From the NCBI GenBank assembly GCA_050575255.1, contig JBNZDD010013673.1:22184-86183 (forward strand): 64,000 nt of DNA, read 5' to 3'. Positions 2,805-32,224 of the stretch are shown here, piece after piece; position 1 is the stretch's first letter, and every line of letters begins with the position of its first letter. This stretch comes from Harriotta raleighana. Lineage: Eukaryota. Below the pieces are notes generated by a model. That model was given only the letters and a program-made list of their open reading frames with translations, had not been told where the DNA came from and made no database searches. The position numbers were made by a program, and so were the translations under genes.

Positions 2805-3218
2805 TCAGATTTTATTTTCAGTTAACTATGTTTCTTGCTGGACTTCAAGAGCAACCAAAACAATCGAATTGATAATTTTCGAATTTTTTGTGGGTGGGCT
2901 GCAGATGTAATTTCTTTCCAACTGTGCGATATTACATAAATGTTGCACAGGAAATATACGCATGGTGTTGTGGTGTTGTGCTCATAAAATTAGTTTTTTT
3001 ACATGACCAAAAATCATGCATGAGTGGGAGGTTTGCTTTAATAATCACAGTGAGTAAGACGTAAGTGTACGCTTTCTACCAGATTCCGAGTGTTATCAGA
3101 GGCAGTAGAACCATCCTCACGATGTATAATTGGAGCGCTAATTGCACATGTGGGATAATTAAATGTGAGGTCTACCCTTACTTTACTTTTCACTTGAATA
3201 AGTGTACAGTTTTACGCT
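2805..3218 (+). repeat. Paralogous copy of the inter-exon spacer 936-1350 (tandem duplication unit)
   Basis: Aligns by eye with 936-1350, for example ggacttcaaga.caaccaaaacaatcg, ttatcagaggcagt and aataagtgtacagtttt. Confidence 0.85.
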
Positions 3219-3219
3219 T

Positions 3220-3408
3220 GATCCACTGTCTCAAAGTTTTTGCTACGGGACATGTTCAACGTCTGGTTCGAGCAAGAGACACTTTATGTATTCCAGCATG
3301 GCCGGGTTATCTGCACACAGGAATAACGTCAGGAATCACACTGTTGGGAAAGAAGGAAGCTCACTGGAATTTAACGCCACACCTTGTATTAACAGTGTAA
3401 ATACTGAG
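3220..3408 (+). pseudogene. Orphan 3' remnant of a deleted protocadherin variable exon
   Basis: DPLSQSFCYGTCSTSGSSK...INSVNTE|gt is homologous to the variable cytoplasmic tails. It abuts spacer DNA directly with no N, and has no promoter or ectodomain. Confidence 0.8.
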
Positions 3409-7705: not shown

Positions 7706-8010
7706 TGCCGAGTGAAGACATACATGCACACGCACACATACATACCCTGTCAGCTGCACAAGGCAGTGGTCAGGATGTGTGTGTGTGTTATGCTCCACTA
7801 TGGTGTTTGTAGAGGGGGGTGGGGGGGGTGATGGAGAGGAAAGGTTTTCACACACAAACAGGTAATTTATTTTGAGTGTCTGTAAGATTTTTTTTTCCTG
7901 GTTCAAATGGAAAGTGAAGAACTTTACTCCCTGGGATTATTGCTGAACGGAGGCGCCGTGTCGCGTTGAAACACTTATTTTTTGTGTGGAGGGGATGCTT
8001 TGAGCTAGAG

Positions 8011-10491
8011 ATGGGATGTTATAAAATATATGGGCTTCTACTAAAATGGCCACTGCTTTGTGCCATATTCTCCTGCTGGAACCCCTCAGTTTACGGACAG
8101 ATCCGCTACTCGATTCCCGAAGAGCTGCAGCCCGGAGCCTTCGTTGGGAATATGGCAGAGGATTTAGGGTTAGACGTGAAAGCACTGGCCGCCCGCAGTT
8201 TCCGCATCGTGTCCGGACCCAGCAGGCGTTATCTGGACGTGAATCCGGACAACGGGATTTTGTTCGTTAAGGAAAAAATCGACAGGGAAGAGCTTTGCGG
8301 CCAGAGCCTGGCTTGTGTGATAGCGTTCGAGGCGGTGGTCGAAAACCCCCCGGATCTGTACTATGTCGAGGTGGGAATATTGGACGTGAACGACAACGCT
8401 CCTGTTTTCCCCAAGAGCCAGTTCAGCCTTGAAATCTCAGAGCTGGCGGCTGCCGGGGCTCGATTCCCCCTAGAGAGAGCCCTGGACCCAGACGTGGGCA
8501 CCAACTCCCTGCAATCCTACCAGCTGATCGACAACGACTATTTCACCCTGGATGTGCAGACGCGAGGCGAGGACGATAAGCTGCCGGTCTTAGTGCTAGA
8601 GAGGTCCCTGGACCGAGAGAAACACTCCAGCCACAGGTTAGTGTTGATGGCCAGAGATGCCGGGGTCCCGGAGAGGTCAGGCACCGCCCAGATCACGGTA
8701 GCAGTGCAGGATGCGAACGATAACGCGCCCGTTTTCTCGCAGTCGGTGTATAGGGTCAGCCTGTTGGAGAACGTGCCCGAAGGAACCCTCGTCATCCGAC
8801 TGAACGCCACTGATTCGGACCATGGCTCCAACGCGGAGATAGTTTATTCCTTCAGTAATCTGATTTCTGCGAGAGTGAGGGAACTGTTTAGTGTGGATTC
8901 CAGGACTGGTGAGATCAGAGTGAGAGGGAAATTAGATTACGAAGAAAACAAAGGGTTTGAGATTAATGCACAAGCAAAGGATAAGGGGTCAGATGCAATG
9001 CCAGTTTACTGTGATGTCCTGGTGAATATTATTGATGTCAATGACAACACACCTGTGGTGATTTTGGCCTCTCTGTTCAGCCCAGTGGGTGAGGACGCGC
9101 TGCCCGGGACTGTGGTGGCTGTGATCAGTGCAGTCGACAGAGATTCAGGAGCCAATGGACAAATACAATGTCAGCTTGCAAACAATCTTCCCTTCAAACT
9201 GGATTCCTCGTTAAAGAACTACTACAGGCTGGTTACACAGGAGCCACTGGACCGGGAAAATGCCTCTGTGTACGACATTACCATTGTGTGTAGTGACAGA
9301 GGCTCCCCTCCTCTCACAGCCAACAAACACATCCAGGTGGAGGTTTCTGATATCAATGACAACGCGCCCCGGTTTGGGCAGCCTTTATACACAGCCCACG
9401 TGATGGAGAATAACCCGGTGGGCTCTTCCATTTACTCAGTGACAGCTTATGATCCGGATTCAAACCAGAACTCTCGGCTCAGCTACTCTATCCTAGAGAG
9501 TCAGGTTGAAGGGGAGTCCGTTTCTGGTTATGTTTCCATTAACTCAGACACTGGTGTTATTTTCTCTCAAAGATCCTTCGACTATGAGCAAATGAAACTA
9601 TTTCAAATTCAAGTTCAGGCCCAGGACAATGGAGTGCCAAGACTGTCCAGTAACGTGTCTGTGGATGTCACTATCCTGGACCAGAACGACAACTCCCCAG
9701 TCATCGTGTCTCCATTGCCCGAGTTTGGCTCAACAGTGACAGAGACTGTATCTCGGTTGGCAGAGCCAGGCTACCTGGTGGCCAAGGTTTCAGCCACTGA
9801 CGCTGACACTGGGCAGAATGGGCGTCTGTCTTACCAGATTCTCCAGGCCACTGATCCGGGGCTTTTCACCATTTCCCCTGACACAGGAGAAATCTGGACC
9901 ATTCGCAGTGTTAGCAACAAAGATGCCAAGAAGCAAAGGCTGGTCATTGTGGTAAAGGACAATGGGTCACCATCGCTGTCAGCCACAGTGACCATCATCC
10001 TATCAGTGGTGGGCAGTGATTCTCAAACACTCTCTGATATCAGCAGCTTGTCCGAAGATCCAGGAATGGCCGCTGACACCAGCCTCTACTTTGTTATTTC
10101 CTTAGGCATTGTTTCATCGATCTTCCTGGTGATTTTAATCATTCTGTCTGTTAAGGTTTGCAAACACAGACTGGGCCTGGGGGCTTCTGATTGCCTTCTG
10201 TGTACGTGTTGTTGCTTTGAAGCTAGACATTCACTGAATGGGGTCCAGAAAGCCAGCAGAAACCTTCAGATAACCCCCAACTATGTGGAGGTATTTGGTG
10301 GTGATCCACTGTCTCAAAGCTATCGCTATGGGTCTTACTCAACTTCTGGTTCATCCAAAGGAGACTTCCTGTATTCCAATGCGTGCAGTTCCTCCAAACG
10401 TGGGAACAACATTGGGATTGGAGTACATGGGCCACACCAAAGCCCACGGGCAGCAGATCCTACAAGTTATAGGAACAATTTAAATAGTGAG
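8011..10491 (+). CDS. Clustered protocadherin variable exon D, complete (827 codons); last full variable exon before the constant region
   Basis: MGCYKIYGLLLKWPLLCAIFSCW..QIRYSIPEE, six cadherin repeats, TM LYFVISLGIVSSIFLVILIILSV. The phase-0 donor GAG|gtgaga follows 10491. Confidence 0.95.
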
Positions 10492-10945
10492 GTGAGAGTT
10501 CAAAGGAAAGACACCTCAGGATTTTGAGTTGGATGTGCAGATTTTCCATGCTGCATTCTAACACCTCGCTCTTGTCGAATTGCCTCTTTGTATTGATTTG
10601 CAGTAATTTGGATTCTTTGCTCAATTCACCAGCTCCCATGTTACTTACTTGCGATTACTTTTCAATAGATGATCCAGCTATAAATGAGCTCCTCTAGTGT
10701 CTCATCTATTAAAATCATCTAATGAAAGGAAATTGCAAGTAATCAGACAAACTATTATAATATGAAACCAATACTTGGTAGGAGAAAAATGAAATACGTT
10801 AACCCATCCTGCTAAGTAATTCTTCCTGAAGCATTCAGTATTTGTTATCTTTCTGATTGCTCTCAAATATACGTGACATAATTTAAATTCTGATTCAATC
10901 AAGAAAAATATTACAACAATGATCTTTTCTGGATTATTCTTTCAG

Positions 10946-11188
10946 AAAATGTGTTGGTCCAACCCTCAGATAACTCCAAACTATGCTGAAGTGTTCAACC
11001 CTGATCCATTCTCCCAGGCTTTGTGCTATGAGGTGTGCTGCAGTGAGGATAAAAATAACAGCCTAGGAATTTTCTCACTGTTAACTGTGCTGGGCAACTA
11101 TGTACTCCGATGCCCTCCATGTGCGAGGCATGGATGTTCAAATGTAGAATATTATAAATTACTGGATAAATATAATTTACAGGCTCAG
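10946..11188 (+). other. Diverged variable-cytoplasmic-domain remnant with splice signals (relic or cassette exon)
   Basis: NPQITPNYAEVFNPDPFSQALCY aligns with NLQITPNYVEVFGGDPLSQSYRY. It is preceded by attctttcag and has in-frame donors after 11032 and 11188. Confidence 0.55.
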
Positions 11189-14115
11189 GTACATATTCCC
11201 CAACATTGTGATTTCCCTATCTAGTAATTTAAGGATATATATAAAGATTCTGTTCCAGATAAAGACTTAAATATTTAAATTGAATCAGTAAAGTCTTATC
11301 TGGAACAGAACTTTTAACTCTCTGTTTTCTACAGCAGTGCCATGTTGTCCTTACAGTGTGGACCATCTTTTAATGTTCTTTCTTCAGTTAAAACTGAGGC
11401 TCTTATCAAAGCAATAAAAATATTCCATTGTGTTCCATTTGCACACAACTTGAATTTTTTAATATATATTATATTTATATAGCGCCTTTCACGTCAGGAG
11501 GATGTCCTGATTTGCGCACAGCGAAAGAGAGTTGCATATTTTACAATTGGTAGAAAAAAATGCTAAAGCACTAGTTAAGTATGAAACATGGTGCCAGATA
11601 GGGGAAGTGGGCTGTACTTTGAGGAGCTATGTTGGTACTCTTTTAAACAGTTGTGGATGTAACAGCAATCAGTTACTTGTTATAAAGCTGACAGAGATGC
11701 AGGAAAAGGAATATAAACATCCTATAGATTAACAGGATTCGTGGGTTTTATTATGATTTGATTCAATCGTTGAAGAAATCTTTCAGAAAGCTGGATAGAT
11801 AGAATGAGTGAGATATGCATTATTTATGGATGTATTGAAACATTCTGATGTTAACAAGTCAAATAGCTGATCTGTGTGAAATCTGAAGATCTTTAGCATA
11901 TACAGTACTTAATAATATAATTTAGTAGGTGCCTCTGCATGTAATGTAACTGTACAGACTTATCATAGAAGTAGTACACATAGAATATAATGTCAAGAAA
12001 ACCTGAAATAATGTATCTTGATTTGGAATTATCTAGGGTGAATAGTGATGGTGAATAATAAGGAAAATCTATTTTGTCTTCTCGCCCAGTTGTTTGACCC
12101 ATTCTCTACTCTGCTAGCAGAACTAGGTCAGGGTATTTTCACTTGGAATGTTGCCAACAATTTGGGTTGGATGATGGAAAGTTGAAATGTTCTGATCATC
12201 TGGCATGAAGATGTTCCATTTTATGTGGCTTATTGTCTGAAAAGAGTTGTGTGAATCCAGAAGTCATGCTTTATATTTTCACTTGAGTGGCACTGAATTG
12301 GAGATATTAGATTTGATGCACTGTAAATGCTAAGTTCCCAAGTTCTTTGAAAAAAAACAAAATTGTGTCCAAAGATACTTTGATCATCCAACTGTTTCTC
12401 AGCAATACCGAGAAAGAATACAAGATTGATAGGTATTATGCATTTTATTTTGATTTAACTCCAGGAATTTGAATGGATTATGTTCATTGATATTGAAGAA
12501 ATAGGAGGGATATTTGAAGAAATAGGAGGGATGTGATATTGGTCATCATTGTATAACATACTGTAATGTTTGCTGATAAAAGGAAATAAGTTGCGCTTTT
12601 TCAAATCATTGCAAACAAGTAATGCTGAACCAGGCAACATATCAATTTCAAAGCTAAATTTAACTATCAGCTGACCCAAGTTCATTGTTGATATCAGATA
12701 TCAGTTTGTCTGTACAAAACTCTGGTAATTTGTTGGAAATAAATAACGAGTCTTCGAGGATCTAAAATACGATTATGTTATTGCATATAGGATTTCTACT
12801 AAAATTGTGCTTAAGGCTTCACAATAGTGGGTGAAAAGCTGTGGCGTATTCAGTACCGGCTTTTATTTTCTGTAAAACAAGTCATTGGAGTTGAGGTACA
12901 GATCAGCCATGATGTTTTTGAATGGTGGAACACGCTCAATGAATGGCCTACGTCTGTTCCTATGATGTTAAAATGATGACTTTTGTGAAAAATAGATAAA
13001 CTACCCAATGAAGTTAGCCTATGTAACAATGCCCATTGATCATGAAGACACATGGCTTTGATTTTGTTGTGTTCCTGTGACATGTGCTCTCAGCAGTCTG
13101 TTGGTAGGGAGTTGACTAAGTGACTAGTCTGTGTTGTAAACACACAGTAAGTGTGCTTCCCACAACCATGGATTTAGCTTAGCCAGTGACATCCTTTCCT
13201 CTCAGCTGGAATGACAAGCTGCCTGTGAGGAATCAGTGATCAGTTTTAATGAATGCTTGAAACTGAGCTGACTATGGTGACTTTGGCATGCTTGCTAATT
13301 GATGCTTATCCTCTGATCAAAGGGCTTAATTCAGTGACAATGAGTGAAGCATGGTACATGACAGTAAGGGACCACAACTACAGCAGGAGAGATATCAAAG
13401 CAACCCGGTGACACTATCTGACACTGAGCTGTTTGTTATGATGAGCTTCAATCTATTTTCGAGTCCTATAAATTAGTGGTTAGAGCACTCAATGAGAGGG
13501 CCTGGGTTCAAATTCCAGACAGGATGAAACATTGGTCAAGTTTCCTTACTCCACAAGCCTCGGTTTACCTGGCAGTAAAAAGAGTGAATAACTAAAATGT
13601 TGGAATTGCTTAAAATCCCATCTTAATTTTTTTTTTCTGATAGAAAATAATATAAAAACAATAAAGTAATAGAAGTCCAATGATAAATAGTAGAAGAGGA
13701 TGTTAATTTGCAGTTTGTATTAAATCGTCTGTTTGTCGCCAGTAAATTAGGAAGGTGTAATACAGTATTCTGCTTGTTATTTTAACAGTAGCAAATGAGT
13801 AAATGCAGACTGATATCAGCTTTACACATTTTTTATGTCTCCTCTCAGACTTGGCCCAAGGTTTTCCAGCCATTATTGATCAGTGATGTTTTCCAAAATG
13901 CAAACGTCGTTGCAGTAAAATGGCTCAACCTCATTGCTTATCACTATGTCGGCAGGAGCAGCAGCTCTGTGAACAGTGAAGGGACTTAGGCTTTCCAGCG
14001 CTTGGTATAAGATTGAAGGAGAAATTATTTATTATCACCGTTTTAACAAAATATTAATTGTCAAGATCTTTAAAACTAAGAATGTAATGTTTAAAACATT
14101 TTAAAGCAAAATACC

Positions 14116-14430
14116 ATAGTGGTTAGCATGCTCACTTCACAAGCGAGAGGATCTGGGTTCAATTCCTGGGTGAGGGGAAATCTTAGACAAGACTCTGTTA
14201 TCCATACATCTTTACCTACCTAGCAGAAAGTAGGAACCCGGTTGTCAATTGATTGATGGATCGCTTTCCAAGGATCACTCAATCCATACTATTTGTTGGG
14301 CACTGTTGTGCACAATTGGCTGCCGAGTTTCACTCCCACAAAATATGCAGTGAATCCACTTTGGATTACATTCTGTGAACCGCTTTGAGACATCTCAAAG
14401 ACTTGATAAGGCGCTACATCAAATATAAGG
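14116..14430 (+). mobile_element. tRNA-derived SINE, diverged copy
   Basis: tagtggttagca A-box and ggttcaattcc B-box head, shared body, and the tail gctttgagac..aggcgctacatcaaat. Confidence 0.8.
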
Positions 14431-15534
14431 GTTAGTATATACCTTCACTGGATTAAAATCAAAGCAAACTTTTGCATTTTTTTCCCTCAGAAAGATGTTT
14501 TTTCTGTTTCTTGTTAAGTAAAAGTTTTTACTGTAAATTCTCCTGAGCGCCAAAACCTTTGGTGAGTAAGCGACTGATTATACTCAGTGGGTGCAACATC
14601 TTTATACCATCTGTGAATATCCTTCTGCCAGTGCCAGCTTAACGTCAAACGTTGCAAAACTGTTTTAGCTGTTCTGTGAAGATATGTTGATTGCAATTCA
14701 AAGCTTGTGTATGTGCATACAAAATCATTTTACACAGGGCTATGTTGATTCCAAACCTCTACACACCCCTGTAAGAAGGAGACGCAGTGAAGGTTTAAAA
14801 CTGAGATCAAAACATGAAGCAGAGAAAGGCTATTCTTATTTAAGCAAATATCTCCTCCGATAATCCATTCAGCACACGCCAAACATAGAAGTGGGCAGAT
14901 TTTAAATTCTACACCATCAGTGGCATTAATTCATTTAAAAAATACCAACTCCCCAGAAATAAAAAGTAATCGTTCAGCTACTTAAAATTCTTTGAAAATT
15001 GTGACAGACGTGATAAATTAGCTGCAGAGGGAGGGAAAAATGAATGAGGAGAGAGGCCATAGATTGTGTTCAATATAAAATAGAAAATATTTGACATCTT
15101 GTTAAAAAAATACTTCCAGGTCAAATGAACAAGAGCATCAGGAATAGCATAGAATAAGATGCAATACCCATTGCTTTTGCGTGACCAATCTCTGATAGTT
15201 CTGAATGAATAAAAACAGACAGTATGTTGGAGATTTGACACAGACACACACGTCAGGAATATGCAGTGTGCAATAAAATAATTTTTTTCAGAGTCAATCC
15301 CCCATAGATTGATAACTTGTCTTAAATTTTATAAACAAAAAAAGTTAAGATTTTATAGCTTTTTAAGCTGTGTTCCATAAGACGATTTTATTCACCTTAA
15401 AGCAGGTGACTGTCAAAAGCTTCTCTCTATTGATGGGGTGGACATCAAGGTGAGAACTGATTGCATTCGGAGTTCACATAAATCACCATCGCAAGTAGTT
15501 TAATCTTTCTACACTTTCTCTCGTTTCTTTGTAG

Positions 15535-15593
15535 GTGAAACAACCGAACACTGACTGGCGTCACTCACAGGCTCATCGAGTGGAAGTGAATAG
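15535..15593 (+). CDS. Protocadherin constant exon 1 (59 nt, phase 0 to 2): VKQPNTDWRHSQAHRVEVN(S)
   Basis: tttctttgtag| acceptor and |gtaact donor. PNTDWRxSQ matches Pcdh-gamma constant exon 1 (QAPPNTDWRFSQAQR), and 59 nt is the known length of that exon. Confidence 0.93.
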
Positions 15594-17299: not shown

Positions 17300-17553
17300 T
17301 TCCCAGTATTTGGAGGAGGAAGTTGTGCAGAGAGATGTGCAGAGAGAGGCGCAGAGGGAGGCACAGCGAGACGCACAGCGAGACGCACAAAGAGACGCAC
17401 AACGAGACGCACAGCGAGATGCACAGAGAGATACCCAGCGTGAAGTGCAATGCGAAGTGCAGCATAACGTGCAGAGTGACGTGCCCCGGGAGTTGGAGAA
17501 AGATCCTGGTGTTCAGCGGAGAGCCGTTCCTGCAAAACCCACAGCCCACCCTG
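17300..17553 (+). CDS. Protocadherin constant exon 2 (254 nt, phase 2 to 1) containing a tetrapeptide repeat
   Basis: ttccttccgcag| acceptor and G|gtcagt donor. It continues the frame as SQYLEEEVV(QRxx)n...EKDPGVQRRAVPAKPTAHP. It starts with SQ and has the same phases as gamma constant exon 2. Confidence 0.85.
17328..17483 (+). repeat. Coding 12-bp minisatellite, 13 units of about CAGCGAGACGCA
   Basis: Units read directly as QRDV QREA QREA QRDA x5 QRDT QREV QCEV QHNV QSDV. Confidence 0.95.
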
Positions 17554-28122: not shown

Positions 28123-28233
28123 CTGGTAGAGAAGGGTGGACAATACCACGGACAACTCCACGAACTCCGTTGCAGATGAACCTGAGTGCCCACCCTCCAG
28201 GAGCCATGCGAAGTCAGTATTTTCTCCCCCAAG
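28123..28233 (+). CDS. Additional protocadherin constant exon (111 nt, phase 1 to 1): AGREGWTIPRTTPRTPLQMNLSAHPPGAMRSQYFLPQ
   Basis: gttccttcatcag| acceptor and a strong AAG|gtgagc donor. The frame is open and compatible with the exons ending at 17553 and starting at 32010. Confidence 0.75.
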
Positions 28234-31039
28234 GTGAGCCCCCTTCCCCTCATCCAGTCTTGGTGATGTTCCTCACCATGGCACTTCTCATGGCTTTTAA
28301 GTAAGAAAGACTTCTTTGACTTATCGTAAGTGATCACTTACACATATAATGTATGAAGCCCTTACAGAAGTCTCAACAATGTGATCAGGTTGCTGTGTCA
28401 AATGCAAGGATTGTTATTATTATTATTTTATTATTATTTCCCAACTTTGTTCGTTGAGTCATTAGGACCAGATCCAAATCCCTTTATTCCCCATGTGCTC
28501 CTGGTGTTTAGATCTAGAATGAATCCCTGAATGACTTGAACAAGACCAAACGGGTTGCTATTAACCCTCTGTTTGCCGCGCAGACATTCAGTAATTTTCT
28601 TTTTTTAAAACGATTGATCATTTGCTCTTTGCAACCAACTCTCTCTCAGTTGCCTCTCCGTTTCTCTCAAGAATATCAAAAACACAAAGCCACATTAAAA
28701 CACATTAACCAATCCAGAATATGTCTGTCAAGGTGAGATAGGTTCTCTTGCTCTCTCTAATTATTGTTGCAAATGCCCCTCTCCATAATGGAACTCTCTG
28801 CCAACATCCTATATTCCAGCTGAGAGCCTGTGTATCAAGTCAGCCAGACATTATCATGTTCAAATATCAGTGTAGGATGGGATTCAAGGTCAGTTGAGTG
28901 CAATCAGTGCTCCAACATTAGGATATCCAGACTGTTTCAGCCTTTCGCTTCACCAAGTAAATTAATCAAAAGGCATATTAATATTAATTAATACGTCCAC
29001 ATAACAAACATCCATCATGTATGGTAGATGGACAAACCATGCAGACTCAGGTTCACATGAGGAAAGGTGGACAGACAATTTAAGGCTCATTGTATTGCAC
29101 AGAGTGTGGTGAGTGTATAAATAAATATTGATATCGGCAGTGAGGACAATATGGGCGAATTTAAGAAGGAACTCGACAAATTATTTGGCAAAAGAATGAA
29201 ATTGAAGGGCATATAAGAAACATTTAAAGGGAAAGAAAATAATTCTGGTGCGCACAGAGAGAGTAGGATAATAAGATTAGATTCAAAGAGCGAGCAAACT
29301 GGCTGGCGAGAGATTTTCCCTGCAATTTCCATGTCAGCAAGTTAAAGAATCCTTTCTTCAATGATATTCAACCAAGTTTAAATATATGATGCACTGTTTT
29401 TAAAAACTTTCTCTTATGAAAGTCTCATTACTGGTGAATAATCCTCTCTCTCTACCCTGTCAAGCTATTTCTGTTACCCTCTGGCTAAGCACAAGCTTGA
29501 AGAAGCTTGCTCACCCATGTATGTGTGTGTGTGTATGTGTGTGTGATTTCAGATCCCCTCCATTTGCAGGGTGTGCTGTCAACAATCGGAGAGAGCTGTA
29601 GGGTCTCAGGTACTGGCTGGGCGCAAAGCTCTGATTCACAAAACCTACTCGTTCATCCATATCCAATTTAATCAACGCCTGTATAGGAATACAATCCATA
29701 TGTTGATTTATAAGGGGAATAAGCAAAATACATTTGATGTATTAAACTATGAGAATGTCGAGACAGATTAGAATGACTTGTTTAGATCTATATTTTTTAC
29801 CGAGGCTATTCCCCTGAAGGAATGATGAGGTATTAATCCTTTTATCTTGGAAATGTCATCCAGAATGATTGGAGCGAGTTTCCCTCTTGTGAGCAGGAAC
29901 ATTGCCTTGCTCTCTCTGTGGATATGTATTAATGCAGCCACCATGCACTTACTTCCCGGAGGCATTTATGGTGGGCTCTTGTTATTTCAGAATCTTAAGA
30001 CTGGTTCACAACGTTGTTGTTTGAGTGGTACATTTTGCCCACATACTATTGCATAATGGGAAATGTTGTGGGACGCTTCAGTGAGATCAGGGTGTTAAGT
30101 GAGTTTCAAGAGGGATGTAGATGGGTAGGACAGTGGGATTGAAAGCATAACTTGGTCTGAGATACTTGATGGGCCAAAAAATGGCCCCCTTACCTGCTAA
30201 CAAATGTCTTTCATTCCTTGTTGTTGGCCAATAACAGCATTGATTTTTCTTTGTTTTGGTGAAAGATTTATTGATAATTTTCTGAACACAGAAAACAAAA
30301 CAGGTCAGGGGCTGATGAATGCAAACCGGGTATTATGAAGGGTGATGCAGAGAGTGGCAGAGAGGGTCAGACAACCTGGTCCACAGCGATAAAATAGCTC
30401 ACATGATTGTAGATACACTAAAAGGTCATGATTGAATCCATCCTGGGGAACACTGACATCTCTGGCAAGGAAAGGCACACACGAGACAGCTTGGAATACC
30501 ATGAATAATTAAAAAGGGTATATTTTGGTTTCTTCGTAGAAGTCAATGCTTATGGGATCTGTTTAAAGGAGGCTGTAGGACAAATCACCCAAGTATAGAG
30601 GCTGACCTCAATATTTGCTCTTAGTTGTGAGGACACAAGACAGTTAAATGATGTTTATGGTAAAAAAATTCGACCAACTGATGTTTAACATGTACCACAG
30701 ATTCGGAGGCTGGATTGAGGAGGGCTGCTGTGTTGGCTTCACGAAACCAATTCCCTCTCGACACTACCTCGCTGCATGAATTGTTCACATATTCACCAGC
30801 TTCTGGGTAAAGAAATTAAATCTGAACTCCCTGTTTACTCCCCACTCTTTGGGACTTAACACCACACACCCAGATCTCTGGGCTACATCGCACATATTAT
30901 TGCAGTTGGGTCACTCGGCAGCCCTTGAAAAACCTTTTCCAGCATTGCGCAATCTCTGCCAATAACCCTCTCTCGTGTATATGCAGCAAATGTGTTTCAG
31001 TTGTTAACTTCTTCCTAGTCGCTTTGTCTGGGTGTCCCG

Positions 31040-32009: not shown

Positions 32010-32224
32010 AGGGCATCGTATCATCTCCAGTTCGGGCAGCAGGAGAGCAGAGCTGGACGCCCAGACTGGCCGTGAAATTTCCCCCGCATCACCAGGCCAC
32101 TGACTATCTACACAATGTCTACATCCCAGGCACGACGGCCACCCTCTCTGGGAAATCCACCTCCGAACGTGAGGGGAAGAAATCCTTCATCACCTTCGGG
32201 AAGAAGAAGAAGAGCGGTAAATAA
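32010..32224 (+). CDS. Terminal protocadherin constant exon, coding part: EGIVSSPVRAAGEQSWTPRLAVKFPPHHQATDYLHNVYIPGTTATLSGKSTSEREGKKSFITFGKKKKSGK*
   Basis: gtgcccctgacag| acceptor, phase 1. DYxxNVYIPG..ATL and KKKSGK match Pcdh-gamma constant exon 3; FITFGKK matches Pcdh-alpha. Confidence 0.92.

Follow-up and report, generated by a model that had tools for sequence, protein, structure and literature searches.

A diverged copy of the Pcdh-nu cytoplasmic motif between the last variable exon and the constant exons of a holocephalan protocadherin cluster: leftover or cassette exon?

Layout of the nu subcluster in the window

The window (i.e., the whole stretch of 64,000 nucleotides that was analysed) covers the 3′ end of a Pcdh-nu subcluster from a holocephalan other than C. 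milii (Table 1). Its last intact variable exon, exon D, is the orthologue of C. milii nu17, with 723 of 825 residues (88%) identical, and the encoded tail weakly matches Pfam Cadherin_C_2 (E 7e-5). The delta, epsilon and mu exons and the first nu exons are on contig C13398; subclusters were named by order and resemblance, and the nu names come from database entries. An intron of 5043 nt (10492-15534) separates exon D from constant exon 1, which has a phase-0 start (across this junction, the nu17 of C. milii reads ...NSE/VKQPN). All 11 motif-bearing nu tails that were examined end in phase 0 with GAG/GTGAG(A/G), in line with the phase that the earlier note gave for the variable donors and constant exon 1.

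Table 1. Features of the window, in window positions (a slash marks a splice boundary)
Feature	Positions	Strand	Remarks
Exon D, last intact Pcdh-nu variable exon (nu17 orthologue)	8008-10491	+	Donor GAG/gtgaga at 10491
Hairpin 1, single-copy inverted repeat, 29-nt arms	10645-10742	+	z -6.9; 203 nt upstream of the acceptor
Possible worn transmembrane segment	10820-10873	+	Motif frame, family spacing, stops on both sides
Pyrimidine tract and AG acceptor	10921-10945	+	CAG-AAA corresponds to Q-K in the intact nu exons (p 0.026)
Candidate 87-nt in-frame exon with diverged nu cytoplasmic motif	10946-11032	+	Phase-0 donor GAG/gtgtgc
Open continuation to second donor (243-nt option)	11033-11188	+	Phase-0 donor CAG/gtacat; nu-tail similarity weak or nil
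Hairpin 2, single-copy inverted repeat	11242-11316	+	z -6.4; 53 nt past the second donor
Pcdh-nu constant exon 1	15535-15593	+	59 nt, phase-0 acceptor
Constant exon 2	17300-17553		
Constant exon 3	28123-28233		Optional
Alternative last exon	30701-30807		
Alternative last exon	32010-32221		

Some further properties of the cluster were noted in passing. The QR(D/E)xQ repeat of constant exon 2 is 12 residues longer than in C. milii, and the last exon at 32010 is used in two reading frames in shark isoforms, the second of which contains a stop here. Single Ns at window positions 423 and 2804 link partial variable exons to non-contiguous sequence, and the assembly shows exons A and B in collapsed form; the intronic feature described below and its surroundings are free of N. 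Many mu-type variable reading frames (G000:C13398:177847-261810) hit a stop shortly past the tail and resemble single-exon beta-type genes. The nu tails listed (G000:C13398:349528-355870, 364677-372409) include no counterparts of the C. milii nu4 and nu7 tails, which are either lost or in gaps.

A motif-sized block of homology in the intron

The earlier note had described a variable-domain remnant in the intron downstream of exon D, and profile searches bear this out. A protein HMM made from 38 spliced nu variable parts and run against the six frames of the intron detected the cytoplasmic motif of nu proteins (E 6.9e-8), and a DNA profile made from four intact exons placed the match at 10961-11036 (E 2.2e-7). 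Position-specific tests based on 52 unique nu tails strongly supported the 24-residue motif (0 of 8895 nulls); support was weak both for the Q-K pair of the acceptor site (p 0.026) and for the stretch of 15 residues past the motif (p 0.028). Resemblance to nu tails was not supported for the 17 residues preceding the acceptor (p 0.43), and the last 12 residues of the 81-codon frame running to the second donor were unlike nu tail ends (p 0.33). Indeed, similarity to nu tails is slight or absent over the last 50 of these 81 codons, the 3′ 150 nt reach a z of only about 0-2 against the paralogues (vs. 7-16 for exon D against the same set), and the flanks of the motif block are unalignable at the DNA level. 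Firm homology is thus confined to a motif-sized block that nearly coincides with the 87-nt option.

Compared with nu4-17 and shark tails, the piece has 15-17 of 30 residues identical. Motif scores were best with shark tails and C. milii nu4 (82-89) and lower with nu17 types (63-69), and the motif shares some states with the divergent nu2 (scores of 59-71). As the highest scores fall on shark tails and nu4, the parent was likely an older paralogue. A tandem duplication of the 3′ end of nu17 was also considered and set aside, since it was borderline only (combined z of 1.8; 10 of 300 nulls) and the motif scores favour other nu types. Annotated protein models with odd tails do not map onto the piece.

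Splice-site anatomy and the case for a cassette exon

The donor at 10491, the acceptor at 10946 and the donors at 11032 (87 nt) and 11188 (243 nt) are all where the earlier note had put them. The acceptor, which follows 454 nt of intron (10492-10945), is in phase with the motif and reads ...ttattctttcag/10946. The 81 codons up to the second donor are stop-free as claimed, within an open frame that spans 10877-11224; the motif frame has stops upstream of the acceptor and none inside, and the other two frames each contain several. It had further been proposed that these 81 codons equal in length the K...E stretch that ends exon D. The numbers are indeed equal, but the register is off by one codon (74 codons from the motif Q to the donor in the piece, 75 in exon D, and 66-75 across 11 nu tails), and given this shift and the poor similarity of the last 50 codons the match carries little weight.

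Splice sites were scored in a crude manner, without a trained model, by counting pyrimidines in 16 positions, by the AG-free zone and by matches to a 9-base donor consensus. With 12 of 16 pyrimidines, the acceptor lies between the extremes of five real ones (9-15) and fails a 13-of-16 cut; 13 acceptors of this grade occur in the 5043-nt intron. The two donors match 6 of 9 (11032) and 7 of 9 (11188) consensus positions, real donors 7-8, which makes the donor of the 87-nt form weaker than every real donor scored. With cut-offs fixed at the candidate's own values, a scan of non-coding DNA (104,358 nt, counted on both strands) yielded only 4 acceptors from which a stop-free in-frame exon leads to a donor of 7, two of them inside the piece, and 10 acceptors for a donor of 6. 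An acceptor and a donor in phase were present at 0.3% of random non-coding anchors (n 18,918). When 5′-truncated relics were simulated (5000 runs), an in-phase acceptor and donor of such grade appeared in 2 of the 848 cases with an open motif (5 of 848 with a looser acceptor), and the frame stayed open for 52 more codons in 39 of 848. Because these rates were set post hoc, they overstate the oddity of the piece somewhat. The base composition also changes at the acceptor, from 29% GC upstream to 45% in the first 87 nt.

The piece thus has, under this crude scoring, AG and GT sites, a frame-preserving length and no stops, as a functional cassette exon would. That the piece was exapted as an in-frame cassette exon, most probably the 29 codons of 10946-11032, is in our judgement a serious possibility, if a tentative one. 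In that case, death of the parent exon would have been followed by the rise of an acceptor where the Gln codon had been and of a donor at YE/VC, so that a second, altered cytoplasmic motif could be added to any nu isoform before the constant domain. By analogy with the motif in the variable cytoplasmic domain (VCD) of mammalian protocadherins, such an addition would perhaps tune trafficking or cis-association. Frame, splice-site phase and island-like conservation would together be hard to obtain by uniform neutral decay, and optional exons already occur in the nu constant region, with models that include or omit constant exon 3 and models with alternative last exons. If the piece is an exon, the 87-nt form would fit the homology block, with its unalignable flanks, whereas the 243-nt form would lean mostly on the length match.

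Missing parts and decay of a variable exon

Neither protein nor DNA profiles detected cadherin repeats in the 5043-nt intron, and the promoter element of variable exons, found at 1383, 4109 and 7592, was not found in 10492-15534. Compared with an intact variable exon, the piece therefore lacks its own promoter, a signal peptide and the six cadherin repeats, and it retains a variable cytoplasmic motif followed by a phase-0 donor; it shows the homology to variable exons without an intact parent reading frame that characterizes a relic. Upstream of the acceptor, a possible worn transmembrane segment was spotted by eye before testing, at 34 residues from K to Q (30-38 in the family). It gave p values of 0.003-0.007 (mean score) and 0.02-0.03 (best score) at the protein level and of 0.025 and 0.27 at the DNA level, and showed no similarity by global alignment. 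An EC1-like relic near 12070-12200, likewise seen by eye, was unsupported by protein or DNA profiles.

The piece is a worn copy of the Pcdh-nu motif, and we put the probability at roughly 0.5 that it was orphaned by the loss of its variable exon and is normally passed over when nu transcripts are spliced to constant exon 1. In this reading the parent would have been an old paralogue among the nu exons, of the RYE(T/S)C type, and not the neighbouring nu17; its motif would have been left as an island by deletion, or a short copying or conversion event would have placed it on sequence that was already degraded. The AG (from the old Gln codon), the GAG-GT of an E-V pair and perhaps the far donor would then be an inheritance from coding sequence that now resembles splice sites.

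How the block decayed bears on both readings. Neutral decay was simulated as a uniform process acting on the complete end of a nu4-17-type exon, with rates and an indel model of our own assumption. None of the 161 simulations with an intact motif lost its upstream flank to the extent seen in the piece, and none of 1172 runs at divergences of 0.3-0.8 combined a motif scoring as high as the real one (z 9.9) with the loss of similarity in both flanks. As uniform decay fails to reproduce the piece, the motif block is an island that arose either from selection or from a short copy, conversion or double deletion; intact divergent paralogues, unlike the piece, keep their flanks as well as the motif or better. 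Identity to the paralogues is 70% at codon positions 1-2 (vs. about 96% for paralogue pairs) and 49% at position 3 (vs. 52%). Set against the 88% identity of exon D to C. milii nu17, this drift of about 30% at positions 1-2 suggests that the piece is likely older than the split from C. milii. The changed motif residues include G13, G14 and L17 (fixed in 51 of 52 shark and chimaera tails), R22 (52 of 52), V9 (48 of 52) and F21 (46 of 52), and some of these changes at near-invariant positions are radical, which speaks against a working cassette exon. Tested against neutral decay, the substitution pattern yielded p values of 0.28-0.49 for third positions, 0.08 for identities and 0.14-0.15 for BLOSUM scores, i.e., a pattern not clearly distinct from neutrality, with amino-acid retention only slightly above it given the divergence, as judged from paralogues. 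Pfam Cadherin_C_2 did not match the piece at E<=1, and KDM6 was the sole, sub-threshold, Pfam match.

Relatives, database searches and other broken tails

A second motif before constant exon 1, as inclusion of the piece would produce, was found in none of the 66 spliced nu models examined, which come from 11 species and include C. milii nu17 in two annotations. These 66 models (out of 105 proteins) carry one motif 44-71 residues before the junction in 64 cases and none in the other 2. The sample consisted of 80 candidates with 10 clusters opened, and the C. milii models of the region are partly fused, so that low-level inclusion would escape notice.

A weak search with the open frame among proteins of 203-2000 aa returned 0 of 1252 candidates at E<=1, and no protein of 55-177 aa shares words with the piece. 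The search of representative proteins gave five matches, of which four are unrelated repeat proteins that sum up weak stretches and the fifth is a fused shark Pcdh model that covers residues 7-33 of the piece only; none of these protein searches recovered an orthologue. Six metagenome matches of 9-10 residues were attributed to chance, and the ESM Atlas gave no usable match to the piece.

Counting the present piece, about 380 kb of the cluster contains 8 broken variable tails; rows cut by a locus edge, two tails beside N, one gap-broken frame and intact frames that reach a natural stop were left out of this count. An acceptor of the grade of that at 10946 accompanies the present piece only (1 of 8). 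One of the other seven, an orphan nu tail in the window (3211-3408), is likewise 5′-truncated, being cut within the motif, is stop-free to a weakened donor (GAG/gtttgg) and has its nearest acceptor out of phase; it is joined to DNA like the intergenic stretch at about 944-1350, reflecting either a real deletion or misassembly. A nu pseudogene tail with two stops lies at G000:C13673:12084-12380. Downstream of the final variable exons of the delta, epsilon and mu subclusters, no orphan motif exceeded the threshold.

Weighing leftover and exon

Broken tails abound in the cluster and we know of none that has been recycled, which gives exaptation a low prior. Its odds are raised considerably by the splice anatomy and the island-like conservation, and are lowered again by the absence from annotated isoforms and by the damage to the motif. 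The weights given to the relic, the cassette exon and the two readings below are judgements and were not computed. In the fuller form of the cassette scenario, a dead variable exon recycled as a shared 87-nt cassette exon would give each nu isoform one or two motifs, with the flanking hairpins controlling its inclusion; taken as a whole, we regard this as doubtful.

These hairpins are two of only 10 of their kind in 381 kb of the locus, and they bracket the piece. They do not form a repeat family, as each is single copy and two further matches to their arms stop at 9 bp, and no Rfam family reached threshold (best 20-22 bits vs. cut-offs of 60-100). AT-rich near-perfect palindromes can be template-switching scars, and the hairpins could be either rearrangement scars at the ends of an inserted or surviving piece or RNA elements. 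An improbable reading that builds on them is that 10645-11316 is kept for a non-coding reason; the hairpins would then give rise to structured or small RNAs or regulate splicing, and the motif copy would be a DNA element or have been carried along as a passenger. Codons lying between hairpins would not be maintained by selection on the hairpins themselves, and the window contains no NRSE-like site, although regulatory elements within Pcdh coding sequence are reported for mammals (PMC2926608).

It is very improbable that the piece is an independent short first exon spliced to the constant exons to yield a soluble intracellular protein, for even though in-frame ATGs with A at -3 (10919 or 10949) and phase-0 donors are present in the open frame, the region upstream is AT-rich at the GC content given above and carries no promoter element of the family, and the proteins of 55-177 aa searched offer no relative.

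Comparison with known systems

The closest known system is the Pcdh-nu subcluster of the elephant shark (nu1-nu17 and constant exons; ABV59349-64; C. milii cluster record EF693954, as named in PMC2926608), reportedly described by Yu et al. in 2008. It has the same locus and order, and the piece carries its nu motif; the piece differs from the elephant-shark nu exons in that it has neither ectodomain nor promoter, has altered near-invariant positions and is in none of the nu models examined. As an orphan leftover, the piece would join the pseudogenes and fragments of Pcdh variable exons, which are reported in degenerate form from other clusters, with 14 in the anole (PMC2764143), and which are likewise homologous pieces inside a variable array with no intact parent. 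It is set apart from the 7 other fragments found here by being a motif-sized island with an in-phase acceptor on one side, two in-phase donors on the other and no stop in between. A relic would be of little weight, as a further instance of the birth and death seen in Pcdh clusters.

In mammalian gamma-Pcdhs, the VCD trafficking motif is cytoplasmic and encoded by the variable exon (PMC4660814). The nu motif would occupy an equivalent place, a likeness by position, and the piece itself is unmatched by the Pfam model. A full-text literature search, which did not extend to the primary elephant-shark paper, turned up no precedent for a variable-exon remnant that serves as a common optional exon. 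The optional constant exons of the nu subcluster, i.e., constant exon 3 and the alternative last exons, are similarly in-frame optional segments common to nu isoforms, but they are conserved from chimaeras to sharks and present in annotated isoforms, and the piece is not. If it is spliced nonetheless, a remnant of a variable exon would have turned into a common optional exon that changes the intracellular tail of all isoforms and leaves recognition specificity untouched, and would add a third layer of Pcdh diversity to promoter choice and constant-exon splicing.
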